From the IMG/VR virus record IMGVR_UViG_2541047691_000020, positions 1-5,712 of that record: 5,712 bases of DNA. One strand, written 5' to 3'. This DNA is from a virus (lineage: Duplodnaviria > Heunggongvirae > Uroviricota > Caudoviricetes). Positions 1-5,422 of this stretch are shown here, piece after piece (positions within the stretch are counted from its first letter, which is position 1; each line of letters begins with the position of its first letter). The position numbers were made by a program, and so were the translations under genes. A model generated the notes under the pieces. The model was not told where the DNA came from. It saw only the letters and a program-made list of their open reading frames with translations, and ran no database searches.

Positions 1-537
1 ATGATGCTTACCCTAGACGAGATAGGTCAATCTGTACGTAACAATATCCAGTTGATTATTGATCATGTCGGCTTACCTCTTGCTGTTGGTCCGCTCAGTG
101 ATGATGATTACAAGATTCTGTGTGGTGGCTATGGTGAGCTTGAATGGGACTATGCGTTAAGCACCTATGGCAACTCCAGAGAAAAGTATGAGTTCTGCAT
201 AAAACTTGTTCAGCAAGGTCGGGTTCAGGGAATACCATCAGGAGCAGCAATTTGTGTTTATGGGGTTGAAGAAAACATCTTTCGTATCCATATGATCGAA
301 AGGTTTTCTAGAGAAGATGAATCTCACCCATTGAAAGGGCGCATGGTTTTACTCACTCTTATGAGTGCTTTTATATTTTGTAAAGCTGTTGAATGTAAAG
401 TTGTCCACATTGTAGAGCCAGTACCAGAACTGGTGCAGTATTACGAGTCTTTTGGTTTCCGCATGGAACAGTGCGGTTATGTGATGTCTGCAGTCATTGA
501 TGAGCTGCAGGATATCTTTCTTAAATTTGCTCAGTAG
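1..537 (+). CDS. Hypothetical protein with GNAT-fold-like (N-acyltransferase superfamily) motifs; N-terminus coincides with the window edge, so the true start is unverified
   Basis: 178-codon ORF from ATGATG at 1-6 to TAG at 535-537. The C-terminal half shows a GNAT-like pattern read by eye: 'HPLKGRMVLLTLMSAF' (P-loop-like turn then helix), 'KVVHIV' (strand), 'PELVQYYESFGFR' (helix ending in GF). It is on the opposite strand to the prophage operon and looks AT-richer (roughly 37-42% GC sampled by eye). No homology search was possible. Confidence 0.55.
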   Translation: MMLTLDEIGQSVRNNIQLIIDHVGLPLAVGPLSDDDYKILCGGYGELEWDYALSTYGNSREKYEFCIKLVQQGRVQGIPSGAAICVYGVEENIFRIHMIERFSREDESHPLKGRMVLLTLMSAFIFCKAVECKVVHIVEPVPELVQYYESFGFRMEQCGYVMSAVIDELQDIFLKFAQ

Positions 538-550
538 GTATAGACGAGAA

Positions 551-574
551 GGGTCTACAAATTGTAGGATACCC
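551..574. repeat. Imperfect palindrome with a perfect 13-bp core, ctacaaAttgtag (555-567), flanked by gggt/accc
   Basis: Base-by-base check: 555-560 ctacaa pairs with 562-567 ttgtag around centre A561; the outer gggt (551-554) pairs with accc (571-574). Confidence 0.6.
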
Positions 575-642
575 GTCCAGATTACCTTAAAGGTACATCT
601 ATGGCAGTCGTTTTGTGCTTAAACTACTAAGAAACGATGTCA

Positions 643-663
643 CCAATCGACATGATCGATTGG
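643..663. repeat. Perfect 8-bp inverted repeat with 5-nt spacer (ccaatcga-catga-tcgattgg); contains a GATC site
   Basis: 643-650 ccaatcga is the exact reverse complement of 656-663 tcgattgg. No T-tract follows, so it is not a terminator. Confidence 0.6.
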
Positions 664-679
664 CATAAGTTAGCTAAAC

Positions 680-689
680 AAGCTAGCTT
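680..689. repeat. Perfect 10-bp palindrome aagctagctt, with a nearby ttagct partial copy at 670-675
   Basis: The sequence is self-complementary over 680-689; it lies 45 bp upstream of the small-ORF start. Confidence 0.5.
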
Positions 690-733
690 TAAAGAGAGGG
701 TTAGAGACGCCTTTACTGTCTCGGGAGTTTTCT

Positions 734-907
734 ATGAAAGATCAAAAAGCAACCAAGCCACAGGTTAAGTTCGACACAATGAAAGCATTCGCAGGTATGG
801 GTGCTGCTGTTGAAGTTCTGATGAAGGCTGCTCCTAATGCGTTCACTCACGCTACTGTCTCTGGTAAAGAGCAGCAGGGTAAGCTTCGTCGTCGCAAAGC
901 AGCATGA
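734..907 (+). CDS. Small hypothetical protein, 57 aa (MKDQKATKPQVKFDTMKAFAGMGAAVEVLMKAAPNAFTHATVSGKEQQGKLRRRKAA); below the ORF-track length cut-off
   Basis: ATG at 734 is preceded by GGGAG (723-727) with a 6-nt spacer. The frame is open to TGA at 905-907 and is followed 20 nt later by a strong intrinsic terminator. It has an amphipathic central segment and a basic C-terminal tail (KLRRRK). No family recognised. Confidence 0.5.
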   Translation: MKDQKATKPQVKFDTMKAFAGMGAAVEVLMKAAPNAFTHATVSGKEQQGKLRRRKAA

Positions 908-926
908 TCATAGCTGGTGCTTTTTG

Positions 927-956
927 AAAACCCGCCTTTAGGCGGGTTTTTTCTTT
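927..956. terminator. Rho-independent terminator at the convergence point of the plus-strand cassette and the minus-strand prophage operon
   Basis: Perfect 10-bp stem aaaacccgcc (927-936) / ggcgggtttt (941-950) with loop ttta. On the plus strand it is followed by ttcttt, giving a U-rich run of about 10. On the minus strand the same hairpin is followed by only the 4 U of the stem, so it is weaker there. The stop codon of the minus-strand gene (955-957) sits in the T-tract. Confidence 0.8.
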
Positions 957-1236
957 AGTGATGTTCTTTGCCCTTCTGTTTGCCTGTTCTGACCTGTTCC
1001 CACTCGATACGTCCTTCTTCTCGTCTTTTGTCTATGTATTCCGCAAGATCCTGAATATTGATGCAACGTTTTGCTTTTTGTGATGTGCCGATGCGATATG
1101 TTGGAACGGGCAACTTACAAGCGTTTGCTTTTGCTTCTGCCGTGGCTGGACTCATGCCAAAGTACTTTTGGCTAACTGCTGAGAGTTCAATGTTAGGGGT
1201 ATTGAATTCAGCCATCAGTAAAAACAAGGTGTTCAT
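955..1236 (-). CDS. PrtN / excisionase-like small DNA-binding protein (putative recombination directionality factor or regulator), 93 aa from the ATG at 1236
   Basis: The track ORF 955..1263 begins with GTG at 1263. The in-frame ATG at 1236 is preceded by GGAG with a 6-nt spacer, so it is preferred. The sequence 'LLMAEFNTPNIELSAVSQKYFGMSPATAEAKANACKLPVPTYRIGTSQ' resembles the PrtN/phage excisionase-like HTH family as far as I recall. It is the last gene of the leftward operon, directly before the terminator. Confidence 0.6.
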   Translation of the reverse strand: MNTLFLLMAEFNTPNIELSAVSQKYFGMSPATAEAKANACKLPVPTYRIGTSQKAKRCINIQDLAEYIDKRREEGRIEWEQVRTGKQKGKEHH

Positions 1237-1272
1237 AATTTTCTCCATCAAAACCGGCTGCACCCGGGAAAA

Positions 1273-1845
1273 TCATAATTCTGTGCTGGTGGCAGGAATT
1301 AATTTCTGCCAGATAGCGGAAACATATTTTGCCTGATGACGAGCATCAGCCAGGGCGTTGTGCCGTTCGCCATCGAAAGGCATGTCCATTTTGGGGTCGA
1401 ATCCGATGGAACGCCCAAGCGTAACGATCGTGCGTACATCGTGGTCATTCCAGTATGCCCACGGGCAGATTTGTCCTGCTCGCTCATAAGCTCCACGTAA
1501 AATTACGTTGTCGAAGGTGGCCCCGTTACCCCAGACTTTTAAATATTTCGTATTGGCTGCGTGCCGGTTAATGAAATGATTTAGTTCTGAGAGAGCATCG
1601 CTGATCGACAAAGTATCATCAATACAGATTGCAGCTCGTGCTTCAGGGCTTTGTTTCAACCACCACAGGATGGTATCGCCGTCAGGTGTAGCTCCTTGCC
1701 CCATAGCACTTTCCAGGCTAACAACCGTATAGAATTCTTGTCCGATGTCTCCGGTTTCTGGAGTGAAGAACACCGCGCCAATGGAAACGATCGGTGCATC
1801 CTTATTTTTCCCCATCGTCTCAAGGTCGATCATTAAGTTGTTCAT
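1273..1845 (-). CDS. DEDDh-type (DnaQ-like) 3'-5' exonuclease, phage accessory type; 190 aa from the ATG at 1845
   Basis: Exo I motif 'MIDLETMG', Exo II-like 'WGNGATFD', Exo III 'HNALADARHQAKY' (H-x4-D). The track start at 1848 is GTG; the adjacent ATG (1843-1845) has AGGAGG 7 nt upstream. The start overlaps the upstream stop as TGATG. Confidence 0.85.
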   Translation of the reverse strand: MNNLMIDLETMGKNKDAPIVSIGAVFFTPETGDIGQEFYTVVSLESAMGQGATPDGDTILWWLKQSPEARAAICIDDTLSISDALSELNHFINRHAANTKYLKVWGNGATFDNVILRGAYERAGQICPWAYWNDHDVRTIVTLGRSIGFDPKMDMPFDGERHNALADARHQAKYVSAIWQKLIPATSTEL

Positions 1846-2417
1846 CACTTCACCTCCTGCGGTGGTTCCGGTAATTTCATCCAGTGGGTTGCCTGCTCAA
1901 TACCATTACCCGGCTTAATCGTTGCATCTCCGCGCCGAAAGGTGCTTCCGGTATAGCGTGCGGAGCATATTAGCGGTTCAACCAGAGAGCTATCGAAATT
2001 CACCGAAATAAGCACGTTCTGATTCTTTTCCGGCATTCGCTCACTACAGCTTATCCAACTATCCGGAATTACCGGAGAGTTGCCCGATAGCGCGTTCTGC
2101 AGTCGCTCCAGTTTCACGTATTCCTGAACCCTGTTTCCGTCGCATGCCCGAAGCCATTGCGCAGCCTTTTGCGCATCAGTATGAAAGGCACAAGTGCGTC
2201 CGTCATCAAATTGCATTTCGTAAAGGTCAGCAACCTGTTCAAAGTGCGTTTGTGGCAAGTTGTAAGTTTGGCTTACAGGTTCTGCTTCCAGCGATGCCAG
2301 AGCAATTCGTGCCAGTTCTTCCGCTTCTTCTGCTGGCAGTACAACGTTGCTACCAGGTCCGTATGTTTCGCGCCACTGCCTGATTGTCAGCAGTCGCTCT
2401 TTGGTAATAGTGGTCAT
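1845..2417 (-). CDS. Phage protein with C-terminal DUF551-like domain (Ead/Ea22-region family)
   Basis: 190-aa ORF with an ATG start and AAGGA about 9 nt upstream. The C-terminal 'WISCSERMPE...WMKLPEPP' matches the DUF551 pattern (W-I-S-x-x-x-R-L/M-P-E ... W-x-x-L-P-x-P) from memory. The N-terminal half is acidic and helical. Confidence 0.75.
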   Translation of the reverse strand: MTTITKERLLTIRQWRETYGPGSNVVLPAEEAEELARIALASLEAEPVSQTYNLPQTHFEQVADLYEMQFDDGRTCAFHTDAQKAAQWLRACDGNRVQEYVKLERLQNALSGNSPVIPDSWISCSERMPEKNQNVLISVNFDSSLVEPLICSARYTGSTFRRGDATIKPGNGIEQATHWMKLPEPPQEVK

Positions 2418-2427
2418 GTGTTAGTCC

Positions 2428-2691
2428 TTATCCTGCTGTACTTTCAACTGATGAGGGGAATAAAATCTTTTCATCAAATCCGGCATTCATATCATGAACA
2501 GCAACACACCAATCCATTGACGAACGATTATCAAGAGCCTCCATGATTTCATCCATGCGGCGCAGGTCATACAGGTAAATGCTTTTATCGCCAATGGTGT
2601 AAAAACCAATTTTTTTCGGTGATGGGCAGCGATCAAGAACGTCCTGTAATTCGCTCAACCATGCTTGTTCTTTTTTTGTCAAAGTTGCCAT
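2428..2691 (-). CDS. Hypothetical phage protein, 87 aa (MATLTKKEQAWLSELQDVLDRCPSPKKIGFYTIGDKSIYLYDLRRMDEIMEALDNRSSMDWCVAVHDMNAGFDEKILFPSSVESTAG)
   Basis: The ORF-track start at 2745 would overlap the upstream gene by 53 nt. The ATG at 2691 has AAGGAG 7 nt upstream and starts 1 nt after the upstream stop (TGA-T-ATG). Confidence 0.7.
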   Translation of the reverse strand: MATLTKKEQAWLSELQDVLDRCPSPKKIGFYTIGDKSIYLYDLRRMDEIMEALDNRSSMDWCVAVHDMNAGFDEKILFPSSVESTAG

Positions 2692-2692
2692 A

Positions 2693-3229
2693 TCACTCTC
2701 CTTTGATGCGAATGTCAGCGACGCGTAATGCGTGTTCCAGGTCAATCAGGTAAAGCCAACTGCCATTTTCTTTAGGTATCATGACATGTCGCTCATCTGC
2801 ATTTATCGGGTGTCCATATCGAAGGTCGTAGCGAGTCGGTAATTGAACTTCCCGCGCTTCCAGTTCAGCAATACGCTTGCACCCATCAGAGATAACTCCC
2901 TCGTAATACTCGCGCTGCTCGTTGAGTTTTGATTTTGCTGCTTCAAGCTCAACGAGCAGCTTCCCAACCGTAAGCGCAATATCCTCGTTCTCCTGGTCAC
3001 GGCGTTTGATGTATTGCTGGTTTCTTTCCCGTTCATCCAGCAGTGCCAGCACGGTTTCTGGTCCGTTCAGAAATTTGAAGGCGTTGAGCGCATCAATATC
3101 CACACCGTAATCTTTAAGTTCCTGTTCACTTAACAAATCATCATCAGCTGGCAACATTAACAGGCGTTCCATTGCCGGAATTGCACGTTCTGCCGCCTCA
3201 CGCAGTGCCTGATAGTCAATATTGCTCAT
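2693..3229 (-). CDS. Ea22-like coiled-coil protein (lambdoid 'ea' region)
   Basis: 178 aa with an ATG start. The central region is rich in heptad-like E/K/L/R runs ('ENEDIALTVGKLLVELEAAKSKLNEQREYYEGV...IAELEAREVQL'). The N-terminal 'MSNIDYQALREAAE' resembles Ea22-like prophage proteins from memory. The ORF is flanked by tight stop-start junctions. Confidence 0.7.
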   Translation of the reverse strand: MSNIDYQALREAAERAIPAMERLLMLPADDDLLSEQELKDYGVDIDALNAFKFLNGPETVLALLDERERNQQYIKRRDQENEDIALTVGKLLVELEAAKSKLNEQREYYEGVISDGCKRIAELEAREVQLPTRYDLRYGHPINADERHVMIPKENGSWLYLIDLEHALRVADIRIKGE

Positions 3230-3230
3230 G

Positions 3231-3530
3231 TCACATCACCCTGAATCCGTTGCATTTACGTAAGAAATCGCAGATATAGCTCTTCATTTTTTCATGCCAA
3301 TCCCGATCATTCCCATTGCACCAACCATCAGGTGGAGTCCAGTTTTCTATCAGAGCAGCCATTTTCTTTGCTTTCGCCGGAGTAGCTGTTGCGGTATCGC
3401 AGTAATGACGAGTGTCGATCAACGTATCCATACCATCGATATCAAGTACGCAAAACCATGTGTGATTCGGCATTTCAACAGATGGTATTTGTTGCCCACG
3501 TCGACGTTTATCAATAAGACATACAGTCAC
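3231..3530 (-). CDS. Small Cys/His-containing hypothetical phage protein, 99 aa, GTG start (positional equivalent of yfdT)
   Basis: GTG at 3528-3530 is preceded by AAGGAGG with a 6-nt spacer and overlaps the upstream stop as GTGA. Length and position after the yfdR-like gene are close to K-12 YfdT (about 101 aa as I recall), but the sequence identity is unverified. Confidence 0.65.
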   Translation of the reverse strand: MTVCLIDKRRRGQQIPSVEMPNHTWFCVLDIDGMDTLIDTRHYCDTATATPAKAKKMAALIENWTPPDGWCNGNDRDWHEKMKSYICDFLRKCNGFRVM

Positions 3531-3943
3531 TGGTTGCCTCCTTTACGAAGCTGGGCGGCGAACTCGTCGCATACGTGCGTTAAAGAGCAAATCTGGATAG
3601 CAGGATGCTCGCGCAACAATTCAACACCCTGCGCACGTACTTCAGCCAGGAAAGCGTCGGTGGCTGACATATTTCCTGTTGCCTTCATGGCCTCCAAAAT
3701 AACCAGAACGCCATCTCGCCCAACCAACACGGAGATAATCTCAGTGTTGTCGCCAACAACCTCACAGAATGCCTGAACAGCTTTACGAGCCAGCTCATTC
3801 TCCGCCGCCAGCGCCGCGCACTTGGCCTCCGCTTCAGCAAATTTACGCACCAGATACTCAGCATTTGTTTCATTCACTTTCAGATCTCGTGGTACACATT
3901 TCCCGCGAAGAAACCCTTCCATTTCGAAAACATTCATGCGCAT
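3527..3943 (-). CDS. Hypothetical phage protein, 138 aa (positional equivalent of yfdS)
   Basis: ATG at 3941-3943 has GGAG 8 nt upstream; a second in-frame ATG at 3935-3937 forms an ATGA overlap with the stop of the HD-domain gene. The protein is Ala/Glu-rich and helical. The length differs from K-12 YfdS (about 120 aa as I recall), so no symbol is given. Confidence 0.65.
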   Translation of the reverse strand: MRMNVFEMEGFLRGKCVPRDLKVNETNAEYLVRKFAEAEAKCAALAAENELARKAVQAFCEVVGDNTEIISVLVGRDGVLVILEAMKATGNMSATDAFLAEVRAQGVELLREHPAIQICSLTHVCDEFAAQLRKGGNQ

Positions 3944-4470
3944 TTGCGTAACTCCGATAACTCGTTAAAACGTTCCATAAACATCCCGTAGGCATGGCTC
4001 GGAGCCAGTGGAATCACGTTGAACATCTCTGTTGCCGGGATGCCTTCCAGTACAGGCCAGAAAGAGCCATCATCAAGCCCGAGATCGCGACGTTCGGTTG
4101 CCAGCATGATGAGATCGGCATATTTCACGGGTGTACTCATAACTGGTGGTAACCCGTATTTCTCACGGATTACGGCGTCTATTTTTTCTTCCATCCGTTT
4201 ATAGTCAGGAAGAAGGCGTTTCAGTGGCGCCGGGATGTCCTGGCAATACGCTTCTGTTGCATCATGCATTAACGCTTCAAAAGCAAATTCCTGCGGTACC
4301 AGTTGGCTGCAAAGCACCGCATGTTGGGCGACGCTGTAGAAATGTGAAAGATGTCCTGCAAAGCGACAGATATTTGAAAGAGAAACCGCGATATCGTTAA
4401 TAACGATGTCGTCTTTATTTATCCTGTCATAATAAAAATGCTTCCCGGAAAAAGTTTTAATAAATGACAT
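3934..4470 (-). CDS. yfdR: HD-domain phosphohydrolase, YfdR-like (5'-nucleotidase-type HD protein of KplE1/CPS-53-type prophages), 178 aa
   Basis: HD signature: 'SVAQHAVLCSQL' (first His), 'EALMHDATEAYCQD' (HD dyad plus downstream Asp). The track start (4497) is GTG; the ATG at 4468-4470 has GGAG 7 nt upstream and gives 178 aa, which matches the length I recall for E. coli K-12 YfdR. A YfdQ-like 274-aa gene is immediately upstream. Confidence 0.8.
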   Translation of the reverse strand: MSFIKTFSGKHFYYDRINKDDIVINDIAVSLSNICRFAGHLSHFYSVAQHAVLCSQLVPQEFAFEALMHDATEAYCQDIPAPLKRLLPDYKRMEEKIDAVIREKYGLPPVMSTPVKYADLIMLATERRDLGLDDGSFWPVLEGIPATEMFNVIPLAPSHAYGMFMERFNELSELRKCA

Positions 4471-4563
4471 TTTGTTCTCCACGTATATGCGCTGCACCGC
4501 GCTGAATTCTGGTAAAAGGAAGCCCTCACCATCTGGCGATTATTGAGTCAATTACGTTTCCAT

Positions 4564-4585
4564 AAATGCCCCCGCAGGGGCATTT
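4564..4585. other. Perfect GC-rich stem-loop (9-bp stem aaatgcccc/ggggcattt, loop cgca) in the 100-nt gap between the yfdQ-like and yfdR-like genes
   Basis: Checked base by base. On the minus-strand transcript it is followed by only UUU then AUGG, so it is not a canonical intrinsic terminator. Confidence 0.5.
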
Positions 4586-4597
4586 GCAGTAATGAAA

Positions 4598-5422
4598 TCA
4601 GGCGGTGAAAGTACCAATAAAGGTTTCTACTTTGCTGTCTTTGAATTTCTCAACAAGCAGATCACGAAATTCGTTAGCCATTTCTTCCTGCACCGCTTCC
4701 AGCTGAATAATGCGCAGAACCAGTACAGGACGATCACCAGTGATAATGCTGAGGCGTAATTTAAACGGACGTTCTTTCAGGCCTTCAAACGGAACGCATT
4801 TAAACTCAAATGCTACTGGCATAATGTCTTTGGTTTTCGCTTCGACAGACTCCATCAAAGAGCGTTTGCCGCTGAAGTCATTATCTTCAAAATCAGCGGT
4901 CTGGTTTGCTTCAATCGTGATTTTACGGACTGCCGCAGCCGCTTTTGTTGCCTTAATAGCGTCACCATTAGCATCAAAGCCCACAAGATAGTCGGCCCAG
5001 TCTTCAATCCATTCTGCCAGTGACTTCTGGGAGTTACGCTCGCCATTAACAGACAGCAGGGCAGAGAACGGTGCTGTCTTTTTCAGTTTGAGAGTGGCGG
5101 TGTTATCTGCGTGACCTGGTTCATCAATAGTACCCAGGTTAAGCACACTGATGGCTCGCATATTATCGGCATCGATAAAGCAGCGGGTGCCTTCATCTGC
5201 AAGATCTTTAGAATAACGGGTAAAGTCATCGATGCTGGCAGTGGAAAGCGCACCACGGAAACGGAAGCGATTTAAATTAAATTTTTCCAGATCATGAATG
5301 CGGAAATTCTCAGGCAATGCCACAGCATCGGCACCAATCTTACTGATAATTTCATTAACACCCTGAGCAGAAATAAGGGCATGGATTTGATTAATTGCGG
5401 TTGCGTCTAAGTTCTGAGACAT
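4598..5422 (-). CDS. yfdQ: YfdQ-like uncharacterised prophage protein, 274 aa
   Basis: ATG at 5420-5422 with GAGGA about 7 nt upstream. The 274-aa length and the immediate downstream 178-aa HD-domain gene match the yfdQ-yfdR arrangement of E. coli K-12 CPS-53 as I recall it. No catalytic motif recognised. Confidence 0.75.

Follow-up and report, generated by a model that had tools for sequence, protein, structure and literature searches.

The window analysed here, a stretch of 5,712 nucleotides from a tailed-phage (Caudoviricetes) record, matches DNA of E. coli PMV-1 at 100% identity and phage mEp460 at 98.7%. Its first 907 nucleotides hold two open reading frames on the plus strand, at 1–537 (178 aa; RefSeq chooses the second ATG, at position 4, as the start) and at 734–907 (57 aa), and a terminator-like hairpin follows at 926–951. 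Between 955 and 5422 the longer open reading frames that match annotated prophage genes all lie on the minus strand and abut or overlap. The original prediction of two plus-strand genes ending at a strong terminator, set beside tightly coupled prophage genes all on the minus strand, thus holds, its second part for the longer reading frames of annotated type. The lower GC content of the two-gene cassette, first judged by eye, is true (42.8% for 1–907 against 47.1% for 955–5422, where no 907-nucleotide stretch falls below 44.5%), but the effect is small. It is due to the gene for the larger protein (41.7%) and the intergenic spacer (41.3%); the small gene has 47.7% GC, and some minus-strand genes, at 42.5–44.0%, are as low as the cassette. 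The AT-richness of the cassette is real and modest.

The prophage is mEp460-like and integrates in dusA, and its early genes, on the minus strand, run against the cassette. The neighbour of the cassette at 955–1263 (minus strand), a PrtN-family, excisionase-like gene (Pfam PF11112, E 4e-23) annotated as the excisionase in mEp460, heads the early operon and forms the fixed right border of a variable cargo slot, being kept in phages that have other cargo there. On the other side the prophage joins the chromosome within the 5' end of dusA: in both PMV-1 and O157:H7 TW14359 a piece of the dusA 5' end, terminating in ...ATGCT[CT]GAT, runs into phage sequence that is the same in the two strains, and the SKA5 record has a short tRNA-dihydrouridine synthase fragment annotated between int and the cargo slot. 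Integration at the 5' end and a displaced dusA fragment are the marks of dusA-integrating prophages, which use a DusA-associated integrase family (PMC4482086); here the integrase gene lies beyond the window. In free mEp460 int is followed by the attP gap, gp23, gp24 and xis, gp23 and gp24 being the two genes of the cassette, and in the related phages Lys8385Vzw, SKA5 and phiSTEC1575 the same slot is filled by Panacea-domain modules. The comparison of homologous prophages that had been proposed therefore bears out the view of the cassette as cargo at a prophage end. An origin in the host flank was rejected, because the cassette is present in the free mEp460 genome and 93% of complete E. coli genomes lack its larger gene; so was a core phage function, because related phages carry other cargo and occupancy is variable.

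Of 5426 complete E. coli genomes, 358 (about 7%) have the larger gene, 562 the small gene and 741 the xis flank. The cassette occurs in O157:H7, O145, O111 and ST95 strains, and also in prophages of Salmonella, Enterobacter, Edwardsiella, Photorhabdus and Shewanella, yet both proteins are annotated only as hypothetical. It occupies at least four distinct prophage positions: besides the slot described above, it sits between late-gene regulators and lysis genes in Enterobacter and Edwardsiella, and within the tail module in Photorhabdus, and a divergent copy lies between gpA and gpQ of a P2-like prophage, a known hotspot for anti-phage genes (PMC9122126). In every context an upstream terminator is found together with a TAtAAT-like box about 35 nucleotides 5' of the ATG. 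In the present case the cassette promoter must lie outside the window, since the first base of the window is that of the ATG of the larger gene. An autonomous unit, variable occupancy and several positions, the attributes of a moron, were all found, the promoter being a candidate recognised from the -10-like box. Neither protein matched the defence models of PADLOC-DB 2.0 at E <= 1. Nothing on the cassette was found in the literature under both protein accessions and their PHROG numbers, it is not addressed in the titles and abstracts of the papers listed for GNAT morons or prophage GNAT defence, and a published accessory-gene screen does not mention it.

The product of 1–537 (plus strand; PHROG 4350; mEp460 gp23; WP_000956557) is an acidic protein (pI 4.8; 4.3–5.5 across homologues) of 178 aa, predicted to be a GNAT-fold, acyltransferase-like enzyme. 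A dN/dS of 0.05–0.26 across homologues marks the gene as real. That the large protein is GNAT-like, as first read from C-terminal motifs, is supported by structure prediction and fold search, and only by these: the predicted structure has the core β1-α1-α2-β2-β3-β4-α3-β5-α4-β6 with the V-shaped split between β4 and β5. The solved folds nearest to it include the tRNA-acetylating GNAT toxins TacT3 (rank 3), 7byy (rank 5) and TacT2, with AtaT also among the matches; the N-terminal acetyltransferases of basic proteins NatD, RimI and Ard1; and the polyamine and streptothricin acetyltransferases SpeG and OrfE. The profile-HMM search suggested alongside that reading went the other way, as no curated GNAT profile in Pfam or NCBIfam matched the enzyme at E <= 1, and a profile search of PDB sequences returned no GNAT, only chance matches (gp41 constructs, armadillo repeats). 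The family is small: when 1.84 billion representative proteins were searched exhaustively with a profile, 94 clusters were found at E <= 0.001. Ten of its distant members were likewise without a Pfam match at E <= 0.01, and so offer no sequence bridge to classical GNATs.

The candidate catalytic residues E100 (in β4) and Y148 (in α4, within YYxxFGF) are invariant and are kept in distant relatives, and the motifs IHM[IL]E.F and YY..GF are retained even in relatives at E 1e-13 to 1e-17. Y148 stands near the start of helix α4, a position that we take to be like that of the catalytic tyrosine of GNAT toxins. The region of motif A consists of an invariant H109-P-L-x-G113-[RK]-M behind an unusually long loop of 13 residues, with a single glycine, which is absent in the distant relative P0132. 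CoA is contacted through the protein backbone, so that this sequence speaks neither for nor against binding. Use of acyl-CoA by the enzyme is not assured, because its loop HPLKGR is non-canonical when set against Q/R-x-x-G-x-G/A.

The second gene, at 734–907 (plus strand; PHROG 2741; mEp460 gp24; WP_000654815), encodes a basic (pI 10.5), largely disordered protein of 57 aa. Its PHROG match (E 8e-36) is to a family of unknown function, and no profile of Pfam, NCBIfam or PADLOC matched it; the early impression that the large protein belongs to no characterised family has therefore proved right, and the same goes for the small one, across Pfam, NCBIfam and PADLOC, the PHROGs being of unknown function. 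The gene is real, with dN/dS of 0.05–0.31 across homologues and a frame that stays open in 32 distinct alleles. The protein has one central helix (residues 15–32) bearing the motif MGAAVEVLMKAAP, and its pI of 10.1–10.8 across homologues gives it a charge opposite to that of the enzyme. The AlphaFold2 model contains this single helix at pLDDT 60.8, too poor for a fold search to be meaningful. The C-terminal end, ...GKLRRRKAA, resembles in sequence the C-motif-2 ClpX degron of MuA, CILEQNRRKKAI (PMC12723719). Conservation within the Enterobacteriaceae is much higher for the small protein (dN 0.02–0.11) than for the enzyme (dN 0.18–0.27).

The 196 nucleotides between the genes (538–733, plus strand) form a covarying structured RNA. 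Their minimum free energy is -60.9 kcal/mol, compared with -45.0 +/- 4.3 for shuffled sequences (z -3.74), and hairpins are found at about 541–557, 583–595, 643–663, 667–689 and 704–722, the last abutting the Shine-Dalgarno sequence GGGAG (723–727) of the small gene. Across 18 homologous spacers 88.5% of cells were paired, against 23–43% with partners slid; the covariation score was 0.245, against at most 0.10, and changes on both sides were seen in 27 cells, against at most 9. Many of the pairs are G-U and compatible with the plus strand only. Rfam gave nothing within the spacer at E <= 1; its only sub-threshold matches were terminator-like ones at 856–1081 and snoR12 (E 0.29, chance) inside the enzyme gene. 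A separate promoter for the small gene was dropped from consideration because a scan of the spacer found no sigma-70-like promoter there. The spacer was also considered as the published sRNA-17 of mEp460-type prophages, and this was rejected because the sequence of sRNA-17 (PMC7719688) falls between yfdP and the repressor gene, beyond the window. An alternative 43-aa reading frame at 637–768 had no match in Pfam, NCBIfam or PADLOC.

Downstream of the small gene, a conserved 3' untranslated stretch, TCATAGCTGGTGCTTTTTGAAAA, and the intrinsic terminator together occupy 908–951 (plus strand). About 20 nucleotides between stop codon and terminator are nearly invariant. The hairpin at 926–951, with 11 pairs (6 of them G-C) and then a T run, closes the cassette just past the 3' end of the convergent xis-like gene. 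Stretch and hairpin are conserved in 15 Enterobacteriaceae homologues, with changes in loop and stem, and other terminator hairpins substitute for it in Xenorhabdus, Edwardsiella and Shewanella.

The enzyme and the small protein are inherited together as an obligate pair. At all 101 enzyme-homologue loci, across at least four prophage positions, the small gene lies 93–250 nucleotides downstream, and the small gene is likewise covered in each of the 361 E. coli records that have the enzyme gene; the pair persists even where the enzyme is 42% identical and the small protein 34%. The enzyme is never seen alone. The small protein is tolerated alone and then decays. Among copies of the cargo that replaces the enzyme gene, only the 99–100% identical ones (65 loci) are followed by the small gene, and none of the 14 divergent ones is. 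The lineage with an orphaned small gene is common (about 200 genomes). Substitutions in linked small genes are mostly synonymous (30 nonsynonymous and 45 synonymous) and in orphaned ones mostly nonsynonymous (15 and 3; Fisher p = 0.0013), and selection at the protein level on the small gene therefore depends on the enzyme. Several of the orphan variants hit otherwise invariant or nearly invariant residues, and each of the 68 orphaned copies carries one or more amino-acid changes relative to the common linked protein, among them K2E in 67 and A33V in the other. A sharp mosaic boundary at about 721, used also by Panacea cargo, separates the small gene and terminator (85–92% DNA identity) from the enzyme gene and spacer (62–70%). 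On the question whether the two genes are a functional pair, as had been suggested, the linkage at every locus and the constraint lost on orphaning answer in the affirmative.

Taken together, positions 1–951 very probably represent the body of an autonomous phage moron, comprising the GNAT-fold gene, the RNA spacer, the 57-aa gene and the terminator, with its promoter just upstream, lodged in the cargo slot that an mEp460-like prophage has between xis and attP (in dusA) and moving as one unit with its obligate pair. What the pair does is less certain. It may be a module of enzyme and antidote, of the kind known from toxin-antitoxin or abortive-infection systems, a reading that we prefer tentatively and hold at somewhat below an even chance. 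A stable acidic GNAT enzyme would then acylate a basic target of the cell or of a phage by means of the conserved H97 and E100 on strand β4 and Y148 on helix α4. The basic small protein would bind and block the enzyme, folding upon binding by its central helix, its basic tail or both, and would be turned over through its MuA-like C-terminal ClpX degron, so that when its synthesis halted, for example on infection by another phage or on loss of the prophage, the enzyme would be freed. The structured spacer could fix the ratio of the two products on a single transcript.

Disorder, a charge opposite to that of the enzyme, the MuA-like degron and toleration alone may all be counted as antidote-like traits of the small protein, and the presence of tRNA-acetylating toxins among the nearest folds also speaks for the enzyme-and-antidote model. 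Against that model, no toxin-antitoxin signature was found in PADLOC or Pfam; the genes are 196 nucleotides apart and do not overlap, with no promoter for the small gene found in the spacer scan; the enzyme is acidic, whereas known GNAT toxins bind tRNA; and its pyrophosphate-binding loop is non-canonical. Tight physical linkage alone could also explain why a lone enzyme is not seen. The small protein is more conserved than the enzyme, unlike most antitoxins, and this stronger conservation would suit contact with a conserved host component. The asymmetry of the pair and the genomic company of the cassette would both be compatible with a role in defence or with a toxin-antitoxin pair in reversed order, and the cassette is a reasonable candidate for a new toxin-antidote or anti-phage module.

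The same observations allow other readings. The GNAT protein might be an enzyme with a dedicated substrate or adaptor serving lysogenic conversion, neither protein being harmful alone; we consider this doubtful, though worth keeping in view. In one version the enzyme would acetylate the small protein at its N-terminus or on a lysine, making or switching an effector, and in another the small protein would direct it to a cationic compound or to a basic target in the host, for instance a protein of the ribosome or the nucleoid. Obligate co-occurrence and the constraint lost in orphans fit such co-function equally well. An acidic enzyme with a basic partner, nearest folds that include NatD, RimI, Ard1, SpeG and OrfE, and the higher conservation of the small protein, expected upon contact with a conserved host component, also speak for it. 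The cassette, however, occupies sites of toxin-antitoxin and exclusion genes (the Panacea slot and the P2 gpA-gpQ hotspot), and a degron-like tail with disorder is more like a regulator than a product. Nor can the conserved lysines K31 and K50 be obligatory acetyl acceptors, because each is arginine in some homologues. Much less probable is a reversal of roles on the model of TopAI (YjhX)-YjhQ, in which the small protein would harm a conserved host target and the GNAT protein neutralise it by binding or acetylation. Reportedly, the GNAT protein YjhQ of E. coli is coupled to a small toxin, TopAI (YjhX), and serves as its antidote, so that there is precedent, and the small protein is the one under stronger constraint; alteration of every orphan (K2E or A33V) could mean that inactivation was required once the GNAT was lost. 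Yet an active toxin left without its antidote should kill, and the orphan lineage is common; a harmless antidote should sometimes persist alone, and it never does. Moreover, in being hydrophilic and disordered the small protein departs from known small toxins, the gene order is opposite to that of yjhX-yjhQ, and a Pfam match to that family is absent. Finally, the two genes might be functionally unrelated members of a shared transcription unit, with the GNAT protein an independent accessory enzyme and with the small gene plus terminator serving as a flank for recombination at the slot, or a 3' end encoding a regulatory RNA. The mosaic boundary near 721, its sharing by Panacea cargo and the nearly invariant nucleotides before the terminator would agree with this, but it is already disfavoured, and we think it very unlikely, given a pair that persists at four or more unrelated prophage positions and even at low identity, a small gene that is missing beside divergent copies of the alternative cargo, and its enzyme-dependent pattern of substitution.

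A bolder form of the enzyme-and-antidote reading, which we put forward as an unlikely but interesting prospect, is that the cassette represents a new family of phage two-component immunity or addiction modules. A sequence-orphan acidic GNAT would be silenced by a ClpXP-labile, disordered microprotein, the ratio being fixed by a multi-hairpin RNA spacer; once freed by infection or prophage loss, the enzyme would acylate a basic target other than tRNA, and distant relatives of the enzyme would have other small partners instead. Should the pair prove to be an enzyme-antidote or exclusion module, the immunity systems that phages carry would gain a GNAT effector whose partner is of a new kind and whose target is probably new as well, and the cassette would be a compact test case for control of an enzyme by a structured intercistronic RNA and a degron-tagged microprotein. 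If it instead modifies host proteins, it would be a new lysogenic-conversion function in pathogenic lineages. Either way the two genes form a system open to direct test, for which residues to mutate have been named.

Among known systems, the GNAT/RHH type II modules (TacAT, AtaRT, KacAT, ItaRT) resemble the cassette in joining a GNAT-fold enzyme of about 175 aa to a small, partly disordered partner on mobile DNA, and TacT3, TacT2 and 7byy are among the nearest solved folds. They differ in that their antitoxin is a DUF1778 ribbon-helix-helix protein encoded immediately upstream and usually overlapping, whereas the 57-aa partner here lies downstream by 196 nucleotides, has no Pfam match and is predicted to consist of one helix and disorder. 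The region upstream of the enzyme gene contains the att junction and the promoter region and no open reading frame of the DUF1778-antitoxin type. No relationship exists at the sequence level, as the enzyme lacks a match to the Acetyltransf HMM and the partner one to DUF1778; the enzyme is acidic rather than suited to tRNA, and its loop for the CoA pyrophosphate is non-canonical. The pair does not belong to the known GNAT/RHH toxin-antitoxin family. TopAI (YjhX)-YjhQ is alike in the genetic coupling of a GNAT-family protein to a small protein and unlike in its reversed gene order, and neither of its members is homologous by Pfam. NatD/Naa40, Ard1 and RimI also count among the closest known systems, as N-terminal and ribosomal-protein acetyltransferases with folds near that of the enzyme. 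With the morons and cargo hotspots of phages (lambda-type morons, the P2 old/tin gpA-gpQ hotspot, Panacea-domain PanAT modules) the cassette shares a self-contained unit of promoter, genes and terminator, a lower GC content, a presence that varies among collinear phages and a slot in which it can be swapped with Panacea modules; it differs from them in being an undescribed pair of proteins, absent from PADLOC, with a structured RNA between their genes.

The window starts exactly at the start codon of a gene for a 178-aa protein (1-537, plus strand), here called the enzyme, so its promoter must lie outside. As originally predicted, this gene and a second plus-strand gene, for a 57-aa small protein (734-907), end at a terminator and face minus-strand prophage genes: the ORF listing gives a continuous minus-strand run from 955 to 5422, and a consensus scan places a terminator-like hairpin of 11 pairs plus a T run at 926-951 (plus strand). 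The lower GC content suspected for 1-907 is genuine yet small (42.8%, against 47.1% for 955-5422, where every 907-nt stretch has at least 44.5%), and is traced to the larger gene and the spacer that follows it. Within the minus-strand run, an ead/Ea22-like gene (2858-3229) is annotated in Escherichia coli PMV-1 as a pseudogene without its C-terminus; the mechanical ORF there (2693-3229) extends past it, into the following ORF (2428-2745).

E. coli PMV-1, like further ExPEC and STEC chromosomes, matches positions 1-1300 at 100% identity; phage mEp460 does so at 98.7%. The free phage has the order integrase (minus), 340-nt gap, gp23 (plus), gp24 (plus), PrtN-family excisionase (minus) and exonuclease, in which gp23 and gp24 are the 178-aa and 57-aa genes and attP sits between int and the cassette. 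In lysogens a displaced 5' fragment of dusA directly precedes the cassette on the same strand, and the prophage is of the dusA-integrating type described in PMC4482086. The cassette is therefore phage cargo, as had been proposed, and not host flank. The dusA fragment, with its promoter region, lies just upstream of window position 1 (7796-7870 in compared record L001; 5029-5145 in L012), so that after integration the host promoter faces into the cassette and may therefore drive the cargo alongside its own TATAAT box, which lies about 35 nt 5' of the enzyme ATG. Strains AH02 and CT01 have the identical region in the chromosome and again on a 43.7-kb record that is labelled a plasmid and is probably the excised circular phage; a further copy lies within a 205-kb F-type plasmid, adjoining psiA and hok (record L014). 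The published sRNA-17, an ArcA-regulated sRNA of E. coli K1 (PMC7719688), was considered for the window and rejected: it maps to 13995-14015 of L001, a stretch of the same prophage that is flanked by yfdP and the cI-like repressor gene and lies about 280 nt to the right of the window.

Related prophages carry other cargo at this site in some cases. Across complete E. coli genomes (n = 5426) the counts are 741 for the flank bearing the excisionase gene xis (955-1263, minus strand), 562 for the small gene and 358 for the enzyme gene. In phages Lys8385Vzw and SKA5 and strain ST648, a Panacea-domain protein and a 128-139-aa protein replace the enzyme gene and the small gene is kept; phiSTEC1575-Stx2k has another Panacea-domain protein with a 182-aa protein, without the small gene. 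These arrangements, a Panacea (SocA) domain protein followed by a small protein (2986-3974, 2982-3970 and 308-1352 in records L003, L013 and L005), are likely PanA-type toxin-antitoxin pairs. Homology with the Lys8385Vzw group breaks at about 721, 13 nt before the small-gene ATG. Within Enterobacteriaceae, DNA identity is 85-92% over about 721-951, comprising the small gene and terminator (dS 0.3-0.7), against 62-70% over 1-720, comprising the enzyme gene and spacer (dS saturated), and sequence comparison thus marks about 721 as a sharp mosaic boundary. The nearly invariant stretch of about 20 nt between the small-gene stop codon and the terminator could mark a flank used in recombination, or an RNA derived from the 3' end.

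The two genes had been suggested as a possible pair, and they occur as one at every locus sampled: targeted look-ups, together with genomes and viral contigs, gave 101 loci with an enzyme homologue, and all 101 have a small-gene homologue 93-250 nt downstream. The unit occupies at least four types of location: in E. coli and Salmonella, the attP-xis slot; in Enterobacter hormaechei and Edwardsiella, a position between late regulators and lysis genes; in Photorhabdus, the inside of a tail-gene module; and in a P2-like prophage of Edwardsiella tarda, the interval from gpA to the portal gene, a site known as the old/tin anti-phage hotspot (PMC9122126). A terminator and a -10-like box precede every copy, as is classic for a phage moron, and the cassette falls within that definition. 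The small gene follows the 139-aa Panacea-cargo gene in 65 copies at 99-100% identity and in none of 14 copies at 70-86%, so it is no partner of that cargo. Distinct variants number 15 nonsynonymous and 3 synonymous in small genes orphaned by replacement of the enzyme gene, against 30 and 45 in copies still linked to it (Fisher exact p = 0.0013). Several orphan variants (L29M, A33V, P34H, K50E, A57V) alter residues that never or scarcely change elsewhere, and K2E removes a lysine retained in nearly all linked homologues. How selection acts on the small protein therefore depends on whether the enzyme is there.

Neither protein matches a characterised family, and none had been recognised at the outset for the larger one; they fall into PHROGs 4350 (enzyme) and 2741 (small protein), both of unknown function. 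The proposed GNAT character of the enzyme stands as regards fold and finds no counterpart in sequence profiles: Pfam, NCBIfam and PADLOC searches gave no match even at E = 1, to the GNAT clan or otherwise, and distant family members have no Pfam match either. Homologues of 42-99% identity occur across Enterobacterales and in Shewanella, the family making up just 94 clusters at 50% identity among 1.84 billion representative proteins. An AlphaFold2 model from a 37-sequence alignment (pLDDT 93.4, pTM 0.90) has the element order of the GNAT core, plus one additional helix at each terminus. Foldseek returned 311 PDB matches at E <= 0.001, the best 50 of which are GNAT-type acetyltransferases throughout; these scores establish a predicted GNAT fold and are too unspecific for subfamily assignment. 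Among the invariant residues are H97 and E100, both in strand b4, the stretch H109-P-L-x-G113 that precedes helix a3, and Y148, part of the YYxxFGF motif of a4; relatives at E 1e-13 to 1e-17 still keep the b4 and a4 motifs. With the usual Q/R-x-x-G-x-G/A loop in a non-canonical form, use of acyl-CoA is at best likely. Members of the enzyme family are uniformly acidic (pI 4.3-5.5). Beside the more distant relatives, a short ORF of another kind than the 57-aa gene lies 67-110 nt downstream (loci 3001-3839 in record L199 and 3001-3921 in L202), one encoding an acidic 52-aa protein ending PKAA and the other an acidic 92-aa protein, which suggests that a conserved enzyme has exchanged partners.

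The small protein and its homologues are basic (pI 10.1-10.8). Its gene is truly coding, with 32 distinct open alleles and dN/dS of 0.05-0.31. A low-confidence prediction (pLDDT 61) gives one helix, residues 15-32, with disorder on either side. The C-terminus, ...QQGKLRRRKAA with variant endings RKAAA, KKAVA and QRIAA, resembles the MuA C-motif-2 ClpX degron CILEQNRRKKAI (PMC12723719) and may likewise act as a degron.

The 196-nt spacer (538-733, plus strand), which formed no part of the original prediction, is by folding and covariation a conserved multi-hairpin RNA. It folds at -60.9 kcal/mol, against -45.0 for shuffled sequence (z -3.74). Over 18 homologous spacers its four hairpins are 88.5% paired, against 23-43% with partners slid, and changes on both sides number 27 cells against at most 9; the numerous G-U pairs are sensible on the plus strand only. 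The last hairpin adjoins the Shine-Dalgarno sequence of the small gene, with an analogous arrangement in Xenorhabdus. No Rfam family matches the spacer, and no promoter was found within it. In our reading the spacer is a structured element between two cistrons of a single transcript, and it would act in processing, stability or translational ratio.

The evidence establishes how the cassette is built and that its small gene depends on the enzyme gene; beyond this we infer, tentatively, an enzyme-antidote module. A stable GNAT enzyme, harmful if unbound, would be blocked by a degron-tailed microprotein that is disordered and of opposite charge, and would be released once the blocker is no longer made. 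This model is favoured because the enzyme always comes with its partner, while a small gene left by itself is tolerated and then decays; because the small protein has antidote-like properties; and because the slot is also used by toxin-antitoxin-type cargo and one cassette copy lies in a defence hotspot. Against it count the large gap separating the genes, the acidity of the enzyme, its non-canonical CoA loop, and the greater conservation of the small protein than of the enzyme within Enterobacteriaceae. The main rival, somewhat less likely, is that the enzyme acts with a protein dedicated to it as substrate or adaptor. A reversal of roles, in a TopAI-YjhQ-like arrangement, is improbable; that the genes are unrelated and only co-transcribed is very improbable indeed.

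The cassette is not represented in PADLOC, and no paper on it came up among the literature records listed. This two-gene cargo module is real, widespread and uncharacterised; the comparative evidence for joint action of its genes is good, and the structured RNA that separates them was unexpected. The upstream DUF1778 antitoxin that defines the GNAT/RHH family was looked for and is absent, as are the sequence signatures tested, so the cassette is not a member of that family. Predicted structure alone places the enzyme in the GNAT fold superfamily, and the likeness of the cassette to GNAT toxin-antitoxin pairs would lie, if anything, in its way of working.
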